DNA of 30,952 bases from IMG/VR virus record IMGVR_UViG_3300011337_000246, positions 1 to 30,952 of that record; one strand, given 5' to 3'. Positions 13,492 to 30,952 of the stretch are shown here, one piece after another; position 1 is the stretch's first letter; each line of letters begins with the position of its first letter. Below the pieces are notes generated by a model. It ran no database searches. It saw nothing but the letters and a program-made list of their open reading frames with translations, and had not been told where the DNA came from. This stretch comes from a virus. Taxonomy: Duplodnaviria; Caudoviricetes. The position numbers and the translations under genes are program-made.

Positions 13492-13758
13492 ATGAAAAAA
13501 CCAAAAACACAAACCGAAGCTATTATAAACTACTTAATAGCAGGAAACAAAATCACCTCAATCCAAGCGACACAAAGGCAATTTGGATATTGTACTAAGT
13601 TACCGCAGCGAATAGCAGAAATTATTGAACTGGGATTCTCAATCAAGAAAGAACGAGTGAATAAACTATCCATATTTGGAAATAACTGCTCATTTGTTGA
13701 GTATAGTTTAGACATAAAAAAGACATCAAAAAAACTTATAAAAAATTATACAAATTAA
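13492..13758 (+). CDS. winged-helix DNA-binding protein
   Basis: TQ.EAI..YL..G.KITS.QA...FG...L..RI.E. Confidence 0.7.
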   Translation: MKKPKTQTEAIINYLIAGNKITSIQATQRQFGYCTKLPQRIAEIIELGFSIKKERVNKLSIFGNNCSFVEYSLDIKKTSKKLIKNYTN

Positions 13759-13779
13759 TGTTTGTTTATTTTAAAAAGT

Positions 13780-13787
13780 TATCTTTG
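13780..13787 (+). promoter_or_regulatory. -7 promoter element (TATCTTTG) upstream of the replication gene
   Basis: TAnnTTTG, intergenic, with a TTTG upstream at 13761. Confidence 0.55.
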
Positions 13788-13806
13788 TAAAAGAAAATTG
13801 GAGCAA

Positions 13807-13926
13807 CAAGTTTGACCACTTGCCAAAAAATAAGATATGAAAATATTTAAACTAAGCATCGTTATAAGTATCTGTAATCCTTCATTCGGGATTTGGTCAA
13901 ACAGAGAAAGTAGCGATGCTTTTTTT
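13807..13926 (+). promoter_or_regulatory. structured leader of the replication gene (kissing loop/attenuator-like)
   Basis: GTTTGACCA (13810-13818) is complementary to TGGTCAAAC (13894-13902); AAGCATCGTTA/TAGCGATGCTT stem followed by a T tract. Confidence 0.5.
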
Positions 13927-13936
13927 ATGCAGGAAA

Positions 13937-14659
13937 ATGAAGGTTAAAAAGGAATATTGTAAAATCACAAAACAAGATATTGAGATTGCAGAAGTATTTT
14001 TTGAGAATGATAAGCACTTAGATGAATTTATTTCTAATGTTTTTAGATATTATTTGAAAAAAGATTTAACAATTAAAACAAAAATTGTAAAAAAGTATTT
14101 CGAGACCTACAAAAAGACTATGGACTATGTATTAGAAGCAAAAGAATTTGGATTAAAAGGTTATGAGGTAAAAGCTAATAATCAAGAAGATACAGAAGAT
14201 ACCCTTGAAGGGGTCTTAGATACCCCTCAAATACCCCTTAAAGATACCCTTGAAGCAAATAGTATAAAGGATAATAATATAAATAATAATAGTATAATAG
14301 TAAATGATATAAGTAAAAGTGAATCATTAATATTAAAACCAAAGAAAAAATCAAAACGTGAACTTGTAATACCAACTGAAAATGAATTTGTAGTATTTGG
14401 ATTAGCTTGTATTGAAAAAGCAGAAATGATAGGTAACTATGAATATGCTTTAAAAGCTAAATACTTTGCATATAACGAATCGGATTGGCATGATGGTAAT
14501 GGTAATAAGATTATTAATTGGAAGACTAAATTAGCTAATGTTATTCCATTCTTACCACCAATGATGAAAGGACAAAATTTGTCAACTGGTCAACCATCGA
14601 AAATGGAAAGCATGGTTAATTCAGCAAAAGAGGCACTTAATATGTTGCAGGATGAATAA
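13937..14659 (+). CDS. putative replication initiator
   Basis: Helical N-terminus, low-complexity linker with DNA repeats, and a C-terminal PT..EF....Y....W.DGNG.KI.NWK domain typical of phage replisome organisers; ATG 13937 preferred. Confidence 0.6.
14185..14320. repeat. iteron-like repeats plus AT-rich tract (putative origin)
   Basis: Four (A/G)ATACCC(C/T)T copies including AAGATACCCTTGAAG twice, one inverted copy, then an AT-rich run. Confidence 0.55.
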
Positions 14660-14674
14660 CTATTGTATAGCAGA

Positions 14675-14732
14675 TAACGGTTCGCAAATAGGCGAAGCGT
14701 AGCGATAGCGGAGTTTTGCTTATTTGCTGTTA
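14675..14732. repeat. attC-like hairpin 1
   Basis: TAACG-GTTC-GCAAATAGGCGAAGC...GTTTTGCTTATTTGC-TGTTA. Confidence 0.8.
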
Positions 14733-14762
14733 CCACTTCGTTGCTATAAACAATAAAAATTA

Positions 14763-14966
14763 ATGAAAAAAGAAAAAATAAAATATACAGGTTGGTCATT
14801 TCACAATAGATGGAAAGCCACAAAGACATTCAGAAATGACAAGTGGTTAGTTTTTGGGTTATACACTTGGTGGGCTTCACCAACTGCGCTATACTATAAA
14901 TTAGGCCTATTTGGATTCGACATTCTTTTTCGTTTTGAAAGAGTGTCTAATGAAAACGCCACTTAG
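14763..14966 (+). CDS. cassette 1 hypothetical protein
   Basis: 67 aa, aromatic-rich; the stop lies in the right inverted repeat. Confidence 0.55.
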   Translation: MKKEKIKYTGWSFHNRWKATKTFRNDKWLVFGLYTWWASPTALYYKLGLFGFDILFRFERVSNENAT

Positions 14967-14976
14967 CAATGAGTGG

Positions 14977-15063
14977 TAACGTTTTGTGGCTTGGCGAAGG
15001 CTGCCTAACGGATGCTTATTTTTCGCACAAAACTTTATGGCAGCTTTTGCCAAACCGCTGTTA
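14977..15063. repeat. attC-like hairpin 2
   Basis: TAACG-TTTT-GTGGCTTGGCGAAGGCTGCC...GGCAGCTTTTGCCAAACCGC-TGTTA. Confidence 0.8.
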
Positions 15064-15106
15064 CCTGCTGGGCGGTTTATCAGTAGGAAATTAATTTAAA
15101 AAACAA

Positions 15107-15484
15107 ATGCAAACACAAATTTTAATCGGACTATTTATCTGCCATTTTTTAGCAGATTACACACACTTATCAACTGCTTGGATGCTTAATGCAAAGCGAT
15201 TAGGGAAACCGCTTTATCCAATTTTCACACACGCCTTTATTCATGCTTCACTTATGCTCGTATTACTTGCATTGGTGTTTGGATTTAGCGGTTTAAAATT
15301 GACTGCATTGTTCGGTTTTCAGTTGATTACACACTTTCTAATTGATGTGTGGAAAGGTAAAATGAATGGTTGGTTTCCTTCACTACAATCACCCGCTAAT
15401 AAATGGCATTGGATTGTGTTTGGATTTGACCAATTATTACACGCTTTAGTTATTATCGGAATGTCGTTATATGCAGTATCATAG
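15107..15484 (+). CDS. cassette 2 DUF3307-like membrane protein
   Basis: HFLADY, H..IH, HFLID..K and GFDQLLH motifs; four hydrophobic segments. Confidence 0.75.
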   Translation: MQTQILIGLFICHFLADYTHLSTAWMLNAKRLGKPLYPIFTHAFIHASLMLVLLALVFGFSGLKLTALFGFQLITHFLIDVWKGKMNGWFPSLQSPANKWHWIVFGFDQLLHALVIIGMSLYAVS

Positions 15485-15493
15485 CCTTGCAGG

Positions 15494-15620
15494 TAACGTT
15501 TTGCAGCTACCAGAAGGGCGGGATTTTAACCACAAAATAAACTTAGAAAGATGAATGATAATTTAACCACAAATGCTTCTAACGAAGCCGAAAGCCCCGC
15601 CTTTTTGGTAGGTGCTGTTA
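15494..15620. repeat. attC-like hairpin 3 (contains the start codon of the cassette 3 gene)
   Basis: TAACG-TTTT-GCAGCTACCAGAAGGGCGGG...CCCGCCTTTTTGGTAGGTGC-TGTTA. Confidence 0.8.
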
Positions 15621-15763
15621 TAGGTAGTGCTTGTTCACGGCATAAACCTAAACAGCTTGGGTACTTACAATGGTTTGATTGGGCAGATAAGAAAACAAAA
15701 CGAGGTGCAAAGCAAAAGCAATGTCCGAAATGTGGCAGGTGGTATTTTCGGGAGGAGTTTTAG
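15551..15763 (+). CDS. cassette 3 small Zn-ribbon-like protein
   Basis: C..H...QCPKCGRW; the N-terminus is encoded by the hairpin. Confidence 0.55.
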   Translation: MNDNLTTNASNEAESPAFLVGAVIGSACSRHKPKQLGYLQWFDWADKKTKRGAKQKQCPKCGRWYFREEF

Positions 15764-15772
15764 CATTACCTA

Positions 15773-15857
15773 TAACGTTCAGGCGGCTTTATGCTGTGGC
15801 AAGCAGTAAGCCTGAACTATAAATAAGTGTCCAGCCATAGCATAAAACCGCTTGTTA
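15773..15857. repeat. attC-like hairpin 4
   Basis: TAAC-GTTC-AGGCGGCTTTATGCTGTGGC...GCCATAGCATAAAACCGCTT-GTTA. Confidence 0.8.
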
Positions 15858-15879
15858 TAAGCCGTTAAAACTTATTCAA

Positions 15880-16182
15880 ATGCCGATTAAAGAAGAAAAT
15901 AAAAAACGTTATCCGAAAAACTGGAAGCAGATTTCAGAACGAATAAGATTTGAACGTGCAAATAACAAGTGCGAAGTATGTGGCTGCGAAAATTATCAAC
16001 CACACCCAATAACTGGAAGCAAAGTCATTTTAACAGTTGCACATTTAGACCATCAGCCAGAAAATTGCCAAGACGATAATTTAAAAGCGATGTGTCAAAA
16101 GTGTCATAATAATTATGATAGGCAGCATAGAAATCAAACTGTCCGTCAAAGCCGATTAAAAAACCAAATGTCGATGTTTTAA
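15880..16182 (+). CDS. cassette 4 HNH-family endonuclease-like protein
   Basis: YP.NW..IS..IR..RA..KCE.CG, LTVAHLDH.PEN....NL.A.CQ.CH..YD. Confidence 0.8.
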   Translation: MPIKEENKKRYPKNWKQISERIRFERANNKCEVCGCENYQPHPITGSKVILTVAHLDHQPENCQDDNLKAMCQKCHNNYDRQHRNQTVRQSRLKNQMSMF

Positions 16183-16189
16183 TGGCTTA

Positions 16190-16309
16190 TAACGTTTCGG
16201 GGGTTGGCGAAGGATGGCTTCCACTAAACTTAAAACGAAGAACAAATGACAAAAATTAAAACAGAACTTTCAAATGAAGCACAGCCAGCTTTTGCCCAAC
16301 CCCTTGTTA
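16190..16309. repeat. attC-like hairpin 5 (contains the start codon of the cassette 5 gene)
   Basis: TAACG-TTTC-GGGGGTTGGCGAAGGATGGCT...AGCCAGCTTTTGCCCAACCCCT-TGTTA. Confidence 0.8.
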
Positions 16310-16512
16310 GCGGTTCGGGCATTGATTGGAAATATTTTTTCGGTGGTAGTAGTGGTAGAACTTTTGACAGATACTATAAAGCCGAAATTAACGGAAAAAG
16401 AGTAGAGAAACACGCTTCAAATCGTGGTGTTAAATACGCTATAGGAAATATTGACGAAGCAAAGAAAAAATATAAAACCGAAAAGGAATTGTCGGAGGCG
16501 TGTTTTGCCTGA
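16246..16512 (+). CDS. cassette 5 hypothetical protein
   Basis: 88 aa; starts in the hairpin 5 loop and stops in the right inverted repeat. Confidence 0.55.
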   Translation: MTKIKTELSNEAQPAFAQPLVSGSGIDWKYFFGGSSGRTFDRYYKAEINGKRVEKHASNRGVKYAIGNIDEAKKKYKTEKELSEACFA

Positions 16513-16559
16513 CCGCTAACTAATAGATAGGAGAAAATAATTTCTAAATAAAAAACTGA

Positions 16560-16790
16560 ATGTCAAATAAAAAATTAGATATTGATGAGAAAATTATTGC
16601 TTATAAATTCATTAACTTTGAAGGATTAATATTTCATTCAAATAAATTTTGGTTACATGAAAAACCTTGCAAAATAGTTTATAACAATGGAAGCAAATCA
16701 GTATTAATAAATGGCCGAAAATTTGGAATAATAAAATTAAGAAAACAAGCAAAAAAAATAGAAATAACAAAAATTAAACTACCATTTTAA
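16560..16790 (+). CDS. hypothetical protein
   Basis: 76 aa basic ORF. Confidence 0.5.
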   Translation: MSNKKLDIDEKIIAYKFINFEGLIFHSNKFWLHEKPCKIVYNNGSKSVLINGRKFGIIKLRKQAKKIEITKIKLPF

Positions 16791-16791
16791 A

Positions 16792-17508
16792 ATGAATCTA
16801 ATCAAACAAAACAACCACTACTTAACTGCACTCAATTCAAAACTAATAGTTGATATGCAGCAAACAGAATTAAAAGACCGAGTGATAAAAACACTTGCAA
16901 AGACTTACATTGACTGCGGAAAGGTAATCGAATCTAAGGAGTTGATGAGCCTAAGCAATGGGGTGATAAACGAAATTAAGCGATACTTTATTAACCTAAA
17001 AATTGATGAACTTGATTTATGCTTCCAAAACGGAGTTAGAAAACAATATGGCGAATACTTCGGTTTAAACATCGTAACATTTCATCAGTGGATTAAGTCT
17101 TATATGAGTGAAGATAAGCGAGCAGAAGCGTTAAAAATACGTTCTACACCAAGAATTGAGCCTATAAAGGAATACACCGCAGAAGATAAGTTAAGGATAA
17201 GAGATGAATTTATGAATCATGCTAAATCTACCTATATGAAATCGGGTACATTTGGATTGTATGAGCCAAGTATTGCAGACATCTACAAAATTTTAGTTGA
17301 TACTAATGAGTTAATTGACATTGAATATACATACAATATTGATGAAGCATTTGATTATGTCATCGAAGACTTAGAATATCGCTCAAAAACAAACGACATC
17401 TTACTAAGGCGAAAGCTAATCGCACAAAAAGAAACGCTAACACACGATAGCAAAGAAGTAATTAACATGGCAAAACAAATAACAATAGAAGATTTATGGA
17501 ACAAGTAA
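16792..17508 (+). CDS. hypothetical replication-associated protein (helicase-loader-like position)
   Basis: 238 aa with L...E....F.NG....YGEY.GLN..TF..W...Y; function inferred from position only. Confidence 0.45.
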   Translation: MNLIKQNNHYLTALNSKLIVDMQQTELKDRVIKTLAKTYIDCGKVIESKELMSLSNGVINEIKRYFINLKIDELDLCFQNGVRKQYGEYFGLNIVTFHQWIKSYMSEDKRAEALKIRSTPRIEPIKEYTAEDKLRIRDEFMNHAKSTYMKSGTFGLYEPSIADIYKILVDTNELIDIEYTYNIDEAFDYVIEDLEYRSKTNDILLRRKLIAQKETLTHDSKEVINMAKQITIEDLWNK

Positions 17509-26877: not shown

Positions 26878-29477
26878 TGCAGAAAACAGAACTAAAAATA
26901 TACGCTGATTCGAAATATTACAATGTTGACTTGTTCGACAATGAACCTATTGAGTTGACTAAGTCTATTATTGAATTGACCGAGCCTGAACAAAGGAAGT
27001 CAGACTATACAAAGACAATCAACATACCAGGCACAGCAAACAATAATTCAATATTTAGTAACATATTTGATGTAAACCACTCAATATTGAATGGAGATAA
27101 CGCTAACTTTTATGTTGACTTTGATCCGAGAAAAAAAGCTAATTGTATTTTATACAGAGAAGGCATTCCACAGATAAGAGGTTACTTGCAGATGACTTCA
27201 ATCAACATACTTGATGAGCAAAATATCACTTATGAATTAGTGGTTTATGGTAGGGTTGCTAATTTATTTCAAGATGTCGGCGATAAGTTATTGACCGATT
27301 ACGACTTTAGCGAATACACTCATTTGTGGACTGAAACCAATGTAATTAATTCAATCAATACTTCGATTATTATCAATGGTGTAACAGCAGCATTCCAATT
27401 AGGTAGGGGTTATGTTTATCCTTTGATTGATTATGGATTTGACAATAATGCACAACAGACTTATAATGTTGACCAACTTTACCCAGCTATATATGTCAAG
27501 ACTATTTTAGATAAGATATTAAAAACTCATGGTTACAGATACGAAAGTACAATTCAATCAAACACATTTTTAAATTCAACAGAGTTTAAGCGGTTAATAG
27601 TACCTGCAAGTGGGAATGCGTTAAGACTAACAGATGACCAAATAATAGACAAGACATTTGTAGTTGATAGGACAACAGATGACAATTTAGGAGCATCAAC
27701 AAATAATATTTTTAAGTTGATGTTTAATCATAAAGTACAAGACACTGACCCAGTAGGGGTGGCAGCAAATAATTCATCATGGGTAGTACCAACTAATGGA
27801 GGTGGAACTTATAATTTTGTTTTAAAATTAAATTTAAATGCAGAATATACTGGTTCTCCTTTTACATTACCACGTTATATATTTATTACATTAAATGTAT
27901 ATTTTGTAACTACAAGTGGAAGGGTTTTAAATCCTGGTGGAACAAAACAAGAATTTGCTATTAATGAAGGTTCATATAGTCAAGACTTTTCATTAATTTA
28001 TCAATCAGATAATAGATTGATTTATGATGGTGATGAGATTTTTGTTAACTTACAAGTAACAAATATTTTTTCATTTAGTAGTTCTTTCGGTTCAGTTGGA
28101 ATTCCTATATCTCAATTAACTTTAACAATCAAAACTGGCACTGAATTTTACGACATACCAAAACCTGAACTATCGGAGTTTTCAAATGTCAATCCAACAA
28201 GCGCACTACCTGAATTAAAGGCTAAAGACTTTTTAACTGCTTTAATTAAAATGTTCAATTTATACATAGAGCCAAATCAACTTGATGATAGGTTGTTAGC
28301 GATTGAGCCTCGAGATGTTTATTATAACACTAATGTAGTTGACTTAACTAACAACTTAGATGTAAGCAAAGACTTCATTCAGAAACCGATGGGCGCATTG
28401 GACTTCAAAAGACTTGAATTTAGCTATGCAATGGATGATGACTATTGGAACAAAGACTACACAGACAAGTATAGCTATAATCATGGTTTCAAAAGATTAG
28501 AGGTTGATAATGATTTTTTAGTAGAAACAAAAAAGATAGAACTACCATTTGCACCAACACCATTAGGAAGGCCAACAAGTGATAGAATCATTCCGCAGAT
28601 AGTATGGTGGAAAGACCAAAACTCAAATAATGGTAGAGTGAATAAAACAGCAAAGCCTCGTATCTTATATTATGGTGGATTAAAGTATACTGGCAAACCT
28701 TTGATAATAAATTCAAATGGAACACCACCAACAACTACAACATATACAAACTATGGTTATGCAGGTCATGTTGATGACCCAGTTAATCCTAACTATGACT
28801 TGAATTGGGCAGTATCGCAAGAAATCTATTATACGATAGGAGGTCAAACACCGATTACTATAAACAACCTTTATAAAAGATATTGGGAGAAATACATCAA
28901 AGAAATAACGGATAAGGACAGCAAGATAATAGACTGCTATATGTACTTCAATAATGTGGAATTGCAGAACTTATCCTTCAGAAATTTGTATAAAATAGAC
29001 CGCCAATATTATAGACTATATAAAGTTGAGACAGACTTGAATAGTAATGAGCCTGCACATTGTCAGTTCTTAAAATTAAAGAATGTAAATGTCCCATTAG
29101 CAGACCAAGTATTAATTAATGGAGGTTCGCAAACAATAGAGGGAGAAAGATACACACCAATAATAAATCAAACACCAAATAGGATTGATGTAATAAATCA
29201 AAGGGAGAATTACAGCATAGAAATTAAAAGCGCAATGGGAATAACTGGATATAGGATTGAGCCTAAATCTCAATTCATCAAAGTTGATAGTGATGTTTAC
29301 TTACCACCTGCGAATGCTTCGTACGATACGGATAATAACAAGTCAATAGAAATCAAAATTTACAACAATCATACGGGTAACATCAAAGTATATACAACGG
29401 CTGACACTCATCATAGCGTAAGCAGCAAATCGGGAATCGTATTTTATTCAGATGGCACTAATTGGTATCATTTATAA
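26877..29477 (+). CDS. tail tip/baseplate hub-like protein
   Basis: 866 aa; DL...EPI.LT.SI......R.S.YTKT..IPGT.NN, YPLIDYG, KDFL..LIKMFNLY motifs. Confidence 0.6.
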   Translation: MQKTELKIYADSKYYNVDLFDNEPIELTKSIIELTEPEQRKSDYTKTINIPGTANNNSIFSNIFDVNHSILNGDNANFYVDFDPRKKANCILYREGIPQIRGYLQMTSINILDEQNITYELVVYGRVANLFQDVGDKLLTDYDFSEYTHLWTETNVINSINTSIIINGVTAAFQLGRGYVYPLIDYGFDNNAQQTYNVDQLYPAIYVKTILDKILKTHGYRYESTIQSNTFLNSTEFKRLIVPASGNALRLTDDQIIDKTFVVDRTTDDNLGASTNNIFKLMFNHKVQDTDPVGVAANNSSWVVPTNGGGTYNFVLKLNLNAEYTGSPFTLPRYIFITLNVYFVTTSGRVLNPGGTKQEFAINEGSYSQDFSLIYQSDNRLIYDGDEIFVNLQVTNIFSFSSSFGSVGIPISQLTLTIKTGTEFYDIPKPELSEFSNVNPTSALPELKAKDFLTALIKMFNLYIEPNQLDDRLLAIEPRDVYYNTNVVDLTNNLDVSKDFIQKPMGALDFKRLEFSYAMDDDYWNKDYTDKYSYNHGFKRLEVDNDFLVETKKIELPFAPTPLGRPTSDRIIPQIVWWKDQNSNNGRVNKTAKPRILYYGGLKYTGKPLIINSNGTPPTTTTYTNYGYAGHVDDPVNPNYDLNWAVSQEIYYTIGGQTPITINNLYKRYWEKYIKEITDKDSKIIDCYMYFNNVELQNLSFRNLYKIDRQYYRLYKVETDLNSNEPAHCQFLKLKNVNVPLADQVLINGGSQTIEGERYTPIINQTPNRIDVINQRENYSIEIKSAMGITGYRIEPKSQFIKVDSDVYLPPANASYDTDNNKSIEIKIYNNHTGNIKVYTTADTHHSVSSKSGIVFYSDGTNWYHL

Positions 29478-29480
29478 ATC

Positions 29481-30952
29481 ATGGCAGAAGAAACAATAAT
29501 ATTAAAAACAGAGGTTGAACTCGGTAATTCGACTAACTCGGTAAAGAGTTTAAAGGCAGAGTTAAGGGCAGTAACAAATGAACTTGCAACACTTGAAGAA
29601 GGGAGTGCAGCGTTTGTAAATGCAGCTAAAAAAGCAGGGGAATTAAAAGACAGAATCGGGGACATAAAAGATACGGTTAATGCATTTAATCCTGAAAAGA
29701 AATTCCAAGCAATAGCAGATAGTGTAGGAATAGCAGCTAATGGATTTGCAGCGATGCAAGGGGCAATGGCTTTGTTCGGTAGTGAAAGTGAAGACCTTAA
29801 TAAAATCATGGTTAAAACGCAAGGGGCAATAGCATTAGCGACTGGATTGAATGGTTTAATGGGGATGGGTGATGCTTTCAAGAATTTGCGTTTAACTACA
29901 TTAGAAGCTATTAGTGGATTGAGTAGCATGGCAACTGGAATGGGTGGGTTGAGTGGTGCATTAAATGCAATTAAAACCGCTTTATTAACTAATCCATTAT
30001 TTGTGTTAGCGAGTGTAATTGCTGGAATAGTAGTTGTGTTGAAATCGTTTTATGATGGATTAAGTAGTGGTGTTGAGATTTATAAAGCAAGTGCAAAGGC
30101 TGTCGGAGATTTAAGGAAAACATATACAAGTTTAATTGATGAAATTAAAGATTTACAAATTGAGAATGATTTAGCAAATGGTAAAATTACAGAAAAAGAT
30201 GCTGCGTTATTAAAAGATAAAAATAACTTTAAAAAAGAGTATTTAAAAATCTTAAATGAAGCAAATACAAAAGAAACTGAAATACGAGAACAAGCAGCCA
30301 AAGAAAGAGATAACGATGGATTTAAAGCTACTAAAAATATTTTAGACAAAATAGGTTTTGAAACAGCAACAACAAAAGCAGCTAAACAATCTATTGAAGA
30401 TATTGAACGACAAAAGCAAGAAAATATTGCAGCATTACGAAAGAAATATTCATTAGTAAGTTCAAACACAATTATTGAGGAAACAAAAAAAGAAGTTGAT
30501 GAAAAAACTCAAAAAGATGCAAAATTAAAAGCTATAAATGACAAAAGAGAAGCAGAGGAAAAAAAGAAAGCAGACGATAAAAAGAAAAAGGATAAAAAAG
30601 ATTTAGATGATATTGGCGATGCATTAATAAAAGATTTAGAAAAACAACAAGCAAGAAAAGAAGAATACAAACAACAAGAAGCAGATAATAGACAATATAA
30701 TTTTGAGCAAAAATTATTAGATGATAAAGAAGAAATAGAAAAAGAAAATGAAAAAAATCAACAGATTGCGGATGATGAAAAGGCAACAGCAGAGGAAAGA
30801 TACGCAGCGATAAAAAAATTAAATGAAGCAGGTGTAATATCTGACAAGGAGGCAAGTGATGCAAAAATAGCAATAGCACAAGCAGAGAAAGACGCTAAAT
30901 TAAATTTATTAGCTGCTTATGGGCAAACACTTGGTCAAGTTGCAAACTTATT
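29481..30952 (+). CDS. tape measure protein, 3'-truncated
   Basis: Absent from the ORF track because it runs off the window; MAEETIILKTEVELGNSTNSVKSLKAELR..., Ala/Gly-rich hydrophobic segment (AMQGAMALFGSESEDL, NPLFVLA), then a long K/E coiled coil. Confidence 0.8.
   Translation, partial: MAEETIILKTEVELGNSTNSVKSLKAELRAVTNELATLEEGSAAFVNAAKKAGELKDRIGDIKDTVNAFNPEKKFQAIADSVGIAANGFAAMQGAMALFGSESEDLNKIMVKTQGAIALATGLNGLMGMGDAFKNLRLTTLEAISGLSSMATGMGGLSGALNAIKTALLTNPLFVLASVIAGIVVVLKSFYDGLSSGVEIYKASAKAVGDLRKTYTSLIDEIKDLQIENDLANGKITEKDAALLKDKNNFKKEYLKILNEANTKETEIREQAAKERDNDGFKATKNILDKIGFETATTKAAKQSIEDIERQKQENIAALRKKYSLVSSNTIIEETKKEVDEKTQKDAKLKAINDKREAEEKKKADDKKKKDKKDLDDIGDALIKDLEKQQARKEEYKQQEADNRQYNFEQKLLDDKEEIEKENEKNQQIADDEKATAEERYAAIKKLNEAGVISDKEASDAKIAIAQAEKDAKLNLLAAYGQTLGQVANL

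Follow-up and report, generated by a model that had tools for sequence, protein, structure and literature searches.

The locus analysed here raises the question of how five short genes, each preceded by a hairpin, come to form what resembles an array of integron cassettes in a phage with no integrase of its own, and whether these cassettes move. The window, i.e., the whole stretch of 30,952 nt, belongs to a freshwater phage whose genome (G000) is 91% complete. A Bacteroidota-type host had been proposed in a sequence-only reading and is supported by the terminase (53% to Flavobacterium phages) and by the portal protein, which matches Nonlabens phages only. The features of the array are listed in Table 1; its left flanking gene is probably replication-initiator-like, judging from its position and internal repeats.

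Table 1. Map of the cassette array and its flanks (positions in the window).
Feature	Positions	Strand	Remarks
Left flanking gene, 247 aa, no family match	13916–14659	+	TAA of the left attI-like site serves as stop codon; relatives conserve the 3' end
Left attI-like non-hairpin site, TAAC-6 nt-ATA	14657–14669	+	Also in L001; matches the terminal-site consensus
Hairpin site 1, 58 nt	14675–14732	+	86% to L095, with a different body; joined to a different body in runs X2 and X5
Cassette 1 ORF, 67 aa, no assigned function	14763–14966	+	
Hairpin site 2, 87 nt	14977–15063	+	90–92% to L005 and L071, which carry other genes
Cassette 2 ORF, 125 aa, DUF3307 membrane protein	15107–15484	+	Body 93% in L326, GTTA to TAAC, with a different hairpin
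Hairpin site 3, 127 nt	15494–15620	+	Loop contains the ORF 3 start codon
Cassette 3 ORF, 70 aa, C-terminal zinc ribbon	15551–15763	+	Reads through the GTTA core
Hairpin site 4, 85 nt	15773–15857	+	Pattern finder and covariance model
Cassette 4 ORF, 100 aa, HNH endonuclease	15880–16182	+	phrog_1571, E 3.5e-29
Hairpin site 5, 120 nt	16190–16309	+	Loop contains the ORF 5 start codon
Cassette 5 ORF, 88 aa, no assigned function	16246–16512	+	Reads through the GTTA core; body 88–89% in L344 and L345 with other leaders
Right attI-like docking site, TAAC-6 nt-ATA, non-hairpin	16517–16529	+	Contig records in X13 and X14 begin exactly at 16517
76-aa gene, no family match	16560–16790	+	Other phages have the recombinase in this slot
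Right flanking core gene, 238 aa, no assigned function	16792–17508	+	

Hairpin sites

All five hairpins were found where the sequence-only reading had placed them, each composed of TAAC-G, a one-sided 4-nt bulge, a stem, and TGTTA, and its unit lengths of 302, 517, 279, 417, and 327 bp proved exact. The same reading had claimed that the bases 3' of each GTTA can pair with the end of the next gene and not with the left flank of their own hairpin; we counted 6, 8, 9, 9, and 7 of 10 ungapped pairs for units 1–5 (the pairing of unit 1 includes a 1-nt bulge), versus 2, 2, 4, 4, and 1 of 10 for the own left flank. Among 186 cassettes, the ends were complementary at 7.4 of 10 positions, compared with 3.5 and 3.3 in controls.

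The hairpin sites are not due to chance. A pattern finder detected 389 sites in 781,713 nt of loci, a set enriched by design since 140 of its 162 sequences had been fetched by hairpin-arm patterns, versus 2 sites in 440,524 nt of shuffled loci. A covariance model of the kind suggested earlier, trained on 34 hairpins (from the window only hairpins 2 and 4, the latter misaligned), matched exactly the five hairpins when run over the whole window, all on the + strand, with E-values from 3e-12 to 2e-5. Single folds are modest (z-scores from +0.45 to −2.8 on the + strand), and the signal resides in repetition and covariation: double changes were present in 13 of 15 inner pairs, and neither the covariation score nor the percentage of paired positions was reached by any of 500 shuffles. 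An Rfam scan of 13500–17500 at E ≤ 5 returned chance miRNA and snoRNA matches alone, nothing relevant.

The folded site consists of two symmetric arms (a TW triplet, 6 bp, and a conserved G:T wobble) flanking a 6-bp spacer. As in attC, AAC/GTT cores close an imperfect hairpin in the window sites, and one strand, here the + strand, folds better and carries G:T pairs. The central spacer, unpaired on both arms in attC, is paired here save for a bulge on the 5' arm (4 nt in 269 and 3 nt in 89 of the 389 sites). The extrahelical bases near the L'' box that PMC5027507 gives as an attC feature are absent, as an ungapped register (bulge 3 or 4) pairs continuously through the inner stem in 585 of 617 hairpins and in 96% of the cells of alignment A3. 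The G:T pair at outer position 7 occurs in 90% of 493 viral units and 71% of 28 bacterial units, and that at inner position 14 in 82–85%. Window sites have two to three G:T versus zero to one A:C pairs on the + strand, whose energy is lower in all five circle and array models and in four of five single-hairpin folds; because the G:T wobbles mark the + strand, we take it to be the folded substrate. The earlier idea that the full stem forms only upon circularisation holds for the outer arm, which needs the two ends of one unit, but the inner stem folds without a circle. With long loops shortened, modelled energies were −22 to −30 kcal/mol for circles versus −12 to −21 kcal/mol in the array, and the outer-arm ends could meet either in a circle or through fold-back of the gene body in single-stranded DNA.

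Strand and orientation

The position of the hairpins upstream of their genes had been described as an inverted attC architecture. The sites themselves are not inverted, and the appearance is an effect of strand: the strand reading TAAC-G...TGTTA is the G:T-rich folded ('bottom') strand, while the other reads as ordinary GTT...AAC cassettes. It is the ORFs that are reversed. All five window ORFs lie on the folded strand, as do 176 of 186 viral ORFs and, at recombinase loci, 270 of 275. In bacterial arrays, 17 of 19 ORFs lie on the non-folded strand and the sites are downstream of the recombinase. The integron arrangement, with the ORF on the top (non-folded) strand and the site 3' of it, is therefore found in bacterial but not in phage arrays. 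Body inversion was rejected as the cause of this flip, since none of 28 body pairs was inverted and the outer G:T polarity is the same whichever way the ORF runs.

Docking site and recombinase

The bare TAAC at 16517, earlier proposed as an attI-like end, belongs to a non-folding TAAC-N6-ATA site, and the corresponding site at the left end had been overlooked. The consensus TAAC-T-N5-ATA was present at array ends, 134 of them viral and 20 bacterial; it immediately precedes the viral recombinases and immediately follows the bacterial ones, just as attI is a non-folding site beside the integrase at the array end. The docking site is the probable insertion point. As for the 76-aa gene, a role as a universal part of enzyme-less platforms was rejected: among 113 downstream ORFs plus one added, its iterated profile was confined to six relatives of this phage, and Atlas gave no match.

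In agreement with the reported lack of an integrase, G000 gave no PF00589 match and the 47 ORFs scanned gave none by PHROG, the remaining 9% of the genome being able to hold one; this supports a recombinase acting in trans. The co-occurring tyrosine recombinase that had been postulated adjoins such arrays in other phages and belongs to an IntI-related family without the I2 insertion. Hairpins lie upstream at 61 of the 62 viral recombinase loci having at least 1 kb upstream; downstream sites occur at 22 of 51 bacterial recombinase loci, with none detected by the finder at the other 29. Such co-location suggests that enzyme and sites are paired. One genome (G003) has 15 sites, with two cassettes duplicated adjoining the recombinase. 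In the family of a Flavobacterium host, 61 genomes were sampled (centre included), and 22 had a recombinase match at E ≤ 1e-100. Cellulophaga phage Ingeline encodes a 40% relative of the enzyme with TAAC upstream, where the finder gave no clear hairpin array. A pattern survey of the phylum was too noisy for counting (81 of 201 versus, for a control phylum, 19 of 101), and controls with the pattern reversed gave similar numbers. Many of the survey matches listed were, by eye, clustered sites of 124–129 nt, and the control phylum had a few of these as well. A genome search with the RNA model scored 150 candidates only and missed known sites (2/5 genomes).

Integron integrases are recognised by the I2 insertion, according to PMC4792948. 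Across the I2 region, the array-linked enzyme lacks about 48 residues relative to VchIntIA, its alignment to 2a3v breaks (query 180–210 versus chain 181–259), and its matches to TIGR02249 reach 151–168 bits in two stretches, versus a cut-off of 265. Judged by its sequence, it is not an IntI. The best profile was NF040815 XerA_Arch (169–207 bits, under the cut-off of 220) and the best PDB sequence match 4a8e, while the best fold match for the model of the chromosomal enzyme was VchIntIA 2a3v. The N-terminal domain of the chromosomal enzyme may be a HARP domain: a motif was present in 44 of 76 bacterial and 0 of 70 viral enzymes, Pfam HARP gave E 0.04–0.1 in two of eight, SMARCAL1 chain 4o66 gave E 0.018, and a fold search gave a best Z of 4.5, with UvsW at Z 3.7 (rmsd 2.1, 45 aligned).

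Comparison with relatives

The gene at 16792 led to 18 loci, comprising ten hairpin arrays with cargo unlike that of the window, three loci with no platform, three with other inserts, and two cut off. Relatives with the same flanks differ by whole cassettes, TAAC to TAAC, in line with the mobility proposed earlier. One common left flank directly precedes many different first hairpins, and the cargo similarity in L326, L344, and L345 spans GTTA to TAAC and then stops. Likewise, joints fall at 4–5-nt cores with unlike sequence on both sides, so that, as in integrons, units move at the core. Record 11 of run X14 contains 16189–16520 without a single difference; on its 39-nt side this segment adjoins the left flank, at 14673, and after it come 421 letters of unlike sequence, which makes cassette 5 position 1 of another array. 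In X13, cassettes 3 and 5 are unchanged; these contigs may derive from related phages, and one joint rests on one contig. The comparison shows that cassettes are gained, lost, and reordered, with exchange at TAAC cores in the interval from the constant left flank to the docking site.

The related phages expected to carry other or reordered cassettes were therefore found, but an exact empty site was absent from the 18 viral loci and 16 metagenome stretches, the three 'empty' relatives missing the entire platform. The predicted circle junctions were not found in four runs, where contigs only were covered, with no power for rare forms. As to the proposed crossover at TAA|C, the data place it within TAAC, but the exact base follows only by analogy to IntI. 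Small shares of the array words (0.06–0.12) occurred in RNA runs.

Hairpin heads and gene bodies

The hairpin-plus-gene unit of the sequence-only reading keeps its lengths and its release as a circle in our proposal, but it is not rigid. Near-identical gene bodies lie under different upstream hairpins in 15 of 28 pairs, and hairpins at least 90% alike are common (760 pairs), although neither count is of independent pairs. For instance, hairpin 3 is 98% identical in L076 and 96% in L286, both with other bodies, and 77–79% in the bacterial loci L171 and L220. By comparison, heads and bodies reassort at the GTTA side too. An in-frame ATG through GTT was present in 46% of 352 long viral heads versus 11% of 44 bacterial ones, and one body with different heads has different in-frame leaders of 19–20 residues (L009/L011 versus L164; window cassette 5 versus L344/L345). 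Head swaps kept the 5-nt spacer in 10 of 18 cases versus 6% expected, as second-strand exchange would give. No case of a body taking the hairpin of its downstream neighbour was seen in 14 pairs, most of which have no right hairpin for comparison.

Proposed mechanism and alternatives

With a probability of roughly 80%, the window array is a recombinase-less satellite of a system of integron-like cassettes in Bacteroidota and their phages. This system works like an integron, yet neither its enzyme nor its sites belong with IntI and attC. The enzyme would cut the folded single strand within TAAC, and the hairpin and gene would be released as a circle, the outer arm being completed by the cassette's own ends. 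Circles would be inserted at the docking site, in which case the newest cassette would be the one adjoining 16517, and for the enzyme this phage would depend on its host or on another phage infecting the same cell. As the system has neither I2 nor extrahelical bases, nothing may block exchange at the second arm or the other strand, which would explain head swapping. Tentatively, and at somewhat below even odds, we propose further that an I2-less recombinase acting on folded single-stranded DNA exchanges bodies (GTTA...TAAC) and heads (TAAC...GTTA) separately, in a second, independently tuned integron-like platform; that phage heads double as portable translation starts; and that small phages keep docking sites alone, drawing on a cassette pool common to hosts and phages.

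An improbable alternative is that phage functions exchange the modules through homologous or micro-homologous recombination of similar hairpins, which would serve as RNA structures or translation leaders. The phage does encode a NinG/Rap nuclease and an exonuclease, hairpins at least 90% alike abound, nearly half of the long viral hairpins supply an in-frame start, and the inserts at the array locus in L003, L010, and L014 are flanked by a duplicated gene end, so that homologous recombination also acts there. However, the joints lie on very short cores with both flanks unlike, the outer arm pairs ends hundreds of bases apart with polarised G:T, and arrays end in a separate consensus site adjoining a tyrosine recombinase. 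The bacterial copies use the non-coding strand for folding, which excludes RNA folding as the common constraint.

Little probability attaches to a frozen remnant, i.e., an array acquired en bloc from a recombinase-bearing phage and now immobile, with relatives differing by independent block acquisitions. None of the five sites is damaged, cassette 5 recurs letter for letter as the first cassette of another array, and the relatives differ by whole cassettes between the same flanks; on the other side stand the lack of a recombinase in G000, four runs (river or other) containing the window array at 0.94–0.97 of its words, and the decayed, hairpin-less cassettes in L325. An ordinary CALIN, of classical attC cassettes from a host integron served by a classical IntI, would account for the AAC/GTT cores and the G:T-rich folded strand, both as in the attC described in PMC5027507, and in Qi 2023 (PMC9892861) HattCI assigned a site of the family to attC. 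This explanation is very improbable given the missing extrahelical bases, the one-sided bulge, the 11-bp outer arm, and the low TIGR02249 score and I2-region shortening of the neighbouring enzyme; in the text of Qi 2023, moreover, that site is the only one of six without verified IntI1 recombinants.

Relation to known systems and significance

Like class 1 and Vibrio sedentary chromosomal integrons, the satellite's parent system has mostly one-gene cassettes, AAC/GTT cores, strand-polarised G:T-skewed hairpins, a docking site that does not fold and that adjoins a tyrosine recombinase (in relatives), chromosomal sites of about 126 nt, and cassettes duplicated beside the docking site. Unlike integrons, it has an enzyme without I2, sites with a one-sided 3–4-nt bulge and no extrahelical bases, two symmetric arms each with a G:T, cassette ends that pair over about 11 bp instead of 3–4, phage ORFs on the folded strand, enzyme and ORFs co-oriented, and heads and bodies that reassort. 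With Xer recombinases (archaeal XerA, XerC/D) and dif sites or pdif modules it shares the XerA_Arch profile match, symmetric arms, and a short spacer, but here the arms exist only after single-strand folding, sequence change is compensatory, and arrays hold many cassettes. As with phage morons and repeat-mediated modules, small accessory genes in the early/replication region vary between relatives; in contrast to morons, the boundaries are 4-nt cores in folded sites rather than long direct repeats, and host chromosomes have the same sites, next to a recombinase.

Polaribacter phage P12002L is among the phage CALINs of Qi 2023 (PMC9892861). Its site P12002L_attC1 belongs to this family and precedes a methyltransferase gene, lying on that gene's coding strand, and the phage has several such arrays with no adjacent integrase. 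In the text of that paper, attC1 is treated as a classical attC and 'divergent' sites are noted, but the site family, docking site, enzyme, and breadth are not described; attC2, recombined with IntI1 there, is the reverse complement of an array-terminal element. P12002L_attC1 is the one site of the family found in the literature, and the figures and data of that paper may annotate more.

Integron finders report almost nothing in Bacteroidetes, according to the text of PMC9024848. Bacteroidota and their phages would carry a parallel cassette system that such finders would largely miss, offering a site-specific route for phage mosaicism and host–phage gene traffic. Methyltransferase cassettes occupy the array locus in L001, L006, and L015 and also occur in cultured phages. 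Array-bearing phage–host pairs are in culture (Flavobacterium phage hemulen6-1, Polaribacter phage P12002L), which makes the claim directly testable, and the system opens to experiment the standing question of whether the I2 helix and extrahelical bases are required for recombination of folded single strands. If the separate exchange of heads and bodies is true, recombination would build proteins with interchangeable N-termini and could switch on captured start-less gene fragments.

Cassette Structure and attI-like Sites

The sequence-only reading, which had described integron-like [hairpin+gene] cassettes, held for all five hairpins, for each of their end pairs, and for unit lengths of 302, 517, 279, 417, and 327 bp, and a covariance-model check recovered exactly these five window sites, three of which lay outside its training set. 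Across loci totalling 781,713 nt, the majority of them fetched with arm patterns, a purpose-built finder returned 389 sites, compared to 2 in 440,524 nt of shuffled sequence. On the folded strand, each site consists of TAAC, a G:T pair, a 3–4 nt bulge confined to the 5' arm, a short paired spacer, a TW triplet, and six pairs, after which the inner arm continues with a G:T wobble (82–85%), more stem, and a variable loop. The outer arm, in which a cassette's two ends pair with each other, mirrors the inner arm, with six pairs past GTTA, a G:T at position 7, and four further pairs. The cassette ends were complementary at 7.4 of 10 positions (186 distinct cassettes); the value fell to 3.5 when the left flank of the hairpin itself was used and to 3.3 when pairs were random. 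The position-7 G:T occurred in 90% of 493 viral units picked by at least 7/10 Watson–Crick pairs, a criterion that does not favour wobble. No conserved extrahelical base interrupting the stem was found. Since wobble pairs function on one strand only, it is the plus strand that folds and acts as substrate, as the bottom strand does in attC (PMC5027507). The earlier proposal of a TAA|C crossover with inverted sites is therefore retained in its first half, as TAA|C would be an ordinary bottom-strand cut, and dropped in its second, the sites not being inverted.

Arrays terminate in a non-folding attI-like site, TAAC-T-N5-ATA (134 viral and 20 bacterial ends). The window contains a second such site, also found at positions 625–646 of the compared locus L001, so that its empty platform would consist of two docking sites in tandem. 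Non-folding attI-like sites, each heading a single gene, were also observed within arrays (L085, L327, L328, and L329), so sites of the docking type may themselves move about, as a second class of site. Where no enzyme is present, the array end is often a 60–70 aa gene (L035, L037, L049, L109, L116, and L352) that, by eye, looks like a ribbon-helix-helix regulator.

Features flanking and delimiting the cassette array in the window
Feature	Position	Remark
Left flank gene	13916-14659	247 aa
Second attI-like site	14657-14678	overlaps left gene's stop codon, 18 nt before hairpin 1
attI-like docking site	16517	array end
Right flank gene	16792-17508	238 aa

Mobility of the Cassettes

The right flank gene was used to retrieve 18 loci, two of which (L016 and L017) look identical at the locus. 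Ten of the 18 bore arrays of 1–5 cassettes with cargo differing from that of the window, three had no platform, three had other inserts bounded by a duplicated gene end, and two were cut off. In L003, L010, L014, and L011, non-cassette inserts lie between the 13916-like and 16792-like genes, flanked by ~30 nt duplicated from the 3' end of the left gene; such inserts appear to represent a second module system at this hot spot, one based on repeats. Sixteen metagenome stretches, some from the same contigs or strains, showed other cassettes in first position next to this left flank. An exact empty site was found neither among the 18 viral loci nor in these sixteen stretches.

Four public sequencing runs were compared as contigs, with the possible source run left out. 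In run X14, a 792-nt contig carries cassette 5, letter-identical, fused at 14673 to the left flank, with 421 unlike letters after it. Cassettes 3 and 5 were unchanged in run X13, and records in both runs have 16517 as their very first position. The contigs of the four runs, an assembly form that drops rare molecules, showed no circle joint. By comparison of loci and contigs, the window holds a real, mobile cassette array.

Among 19 loci with relatives of ORF 2 (a DUF3307 membrane protein), L326 matched at 93% over the whole stretch between GTTA and TAAC, several others were cassette-bounded, and about six lacked such bounds; of four loci with relatives of ORF 5 (88 aa), two matched from GTTA to TAAC at 88–89% and two were unbounded. 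The TAAC/GTTA boundaries anticipated around cargo homologues were thus present only in part, so these gene families also live outside cassettes. L325 (2228–2675) holds the body of cassette 2 (95%) with a short direct repeat at its flanks and no hairpins, probably a cassette that left the system.

Reassortment of Hairpins and Genes

Heads (hairpins) and bodies (gene parts) reassort. Among 540 distinct units, 28 non-independent pairs had bodies at least 85% alike; 15 of these differed in the upstream hairpin (one borderline), 13 shared it, and none was inverted. Conversely, bodies differed in 747/760 hairpin pairs at least 90% alike, which are likewise not independent. Window hairpin 3, for example, recurs at 98% identity in L076 and 96% in L286 with other bodies. 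Under a looser threshold, the 5-nt spacer was retained in 10/18 head swaps (6% expected), and the change fell right at TGTTA in 8.

A 30-nt leader was common to 45 pairs whose genes are unrelated, and the same body occurred under different 19–20 residue leaders. A start codon in frame through GTT was present in 46% of 352 long viral heads versus 11% of 44 bacterial ones, and in the heads of window cassettes 3 and 5. ORF stops are trimmed to the cassette ends, the stop being the TAA of TAAC in 120/570 ORFs and lying thirteen bases earlier in 133/570. The motif TAnnTTTG, the Bacteroidota -7 promoter element, occurred in hairpin loops on the non-folded strand in 84/534 viral and 8/39 bacterial cases and on the folded strand in 20 viral and 0 bacterial cases (counts uncorrected for base composition). 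It is possibly a promoter for bacterial cassettes and antisense in phages.

The Phage and Its Likely Host

The window is an entire virus record of 30,952 nt, 91% complete (CheckV), with portal, terminase, endolysin, and NinG genes. Because the terminase shares 53% identity with Flavobacterium phages and the portal matches Nonlabens phages only, the host is likely a member of the Bacteroidota. Inside the 247-aa gene, an AT-rich tract comes after four 13-nt repeats (14197–14254), an arrangement that may resemble iterons inside a replication-initiator gene; among relatives, the middle of this gene is exchanged and its 3' end retained. Three minus-strand ORFs without a PHROG match occupy 29468–30879, at the end of the window, and the rest of the gene order is all plus. 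Two cultured phages carry related arrays: Flavobacterium phage hemulen6-1 (L352, 174–4275), with seven hairpins and three methyltransferase genes, and Polaribacter phage P12002L (L161, 29200–39000), with several arrays of the window's site family.

Array-Linked Recombinases and Relation to Integrons

No tyrosine recombinase was found in the window record (91% complete). As the sequence-only reading had anticipated, one co-occurs with arrays elsewhere, encoded by 264–277 aa genes directly after the terminal sites. These proteins match PF00589 and PF13495, fall under the TIGR02249 and XerA model cut-offs, and lack the I2 region of VchIntIA in alignment. Viral relatives numbered 201; among the best 80, hairpins lay upstream in 61 of the 62 loci with at least 1 kb upstream, and 270/275 ORFs were on the folded strand. 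Genome relatives, mostly from Bacteroidota, numbered at least 552; among the best 80, 22/51 had downstream sites on the opposite strand, and 17/19 ORFs were on the non-folded strand. The bacterial sites belong to the same family as the window sites, with 77–79% identity to window hairpin 3 (L171 and L220), and some share the cassette-5 end pair. Genome G003 has 15 sites, with two cassettes repeated beside the enzyme, and the enzyme profile was matched (E ≤ 1e-100) in 22/61 genomes of its family. Most chromosomal enzymes bear an extra N-terminal domain, which may resemble a HARP domain.

The window array works like an integron, being a cassette array mobile at its cores with a folded strand like the attC bottom strand, but enzyme, site shape, and ORF orientation all place it outside the integrons. 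Unlike IntI, the array-linked enzyme of relatives is below the TIGR02249 cut-off and without I2; unlike attC, the sites have no extrahelical bases and a one-sided 3–4 nt bulge in the 5' arm; and phage ORFs, in contrast to integron cassettes, are on the folded strand (in bacterial arrays, the non-folded). No description of this system was found in a literature search that covered few subscription papers. Integrons are few in Bacteroidetes, and an integron-like recombinase subgroup has an insertion 'not fully conserved', according to PMC9024848, PMC8138268, PMC8618304, and PMC4889954. Qi et al. 2023 list a CALIN in P12002L (PMC9892861). By sequence comparison, its attC1 is a site of the window's family; of the six sites in that study, it alone gave no verified IntI1 recombinants. 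The attC2 of this phage, which recombined with IntI1, corresponds to an array-terminal element read as its reverse complement.

We consider it probable (about 0.8) that folded single strands are recombined site-specifically by the I2-less enzyme family, which either the host or a co-infecting phage would provide, a reading built on the unit boundaries, polarity, co-location, and exchange established by comparing sequences. The enzyme would cleave within TAAC, presumably at TAA|C; cassettes would form circles and be inserted at the docking site; and co-location points to the hairpin sites as the family's substrate. IntI systems use extrahelical bases and I2 to prevent the second strand exchange (PMC4792948), and attC sites that have lost extrahelical bases favour top-strand recombination (PMC5027507). 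The absence of both features could explain head swapping, as the second exchange would be unblocked.

A control phylum sample contained site-like matches of 125–126 nt (G286:C10:20171-20296 and G244:C26:43365-43489), and the system may reach beyond Bacteroidota. At the window's own locus, relatives L004, L011, and L007 carry a few host-type cassettes with the ORF reversed, which suggests cassette traffic between host and phage pools.
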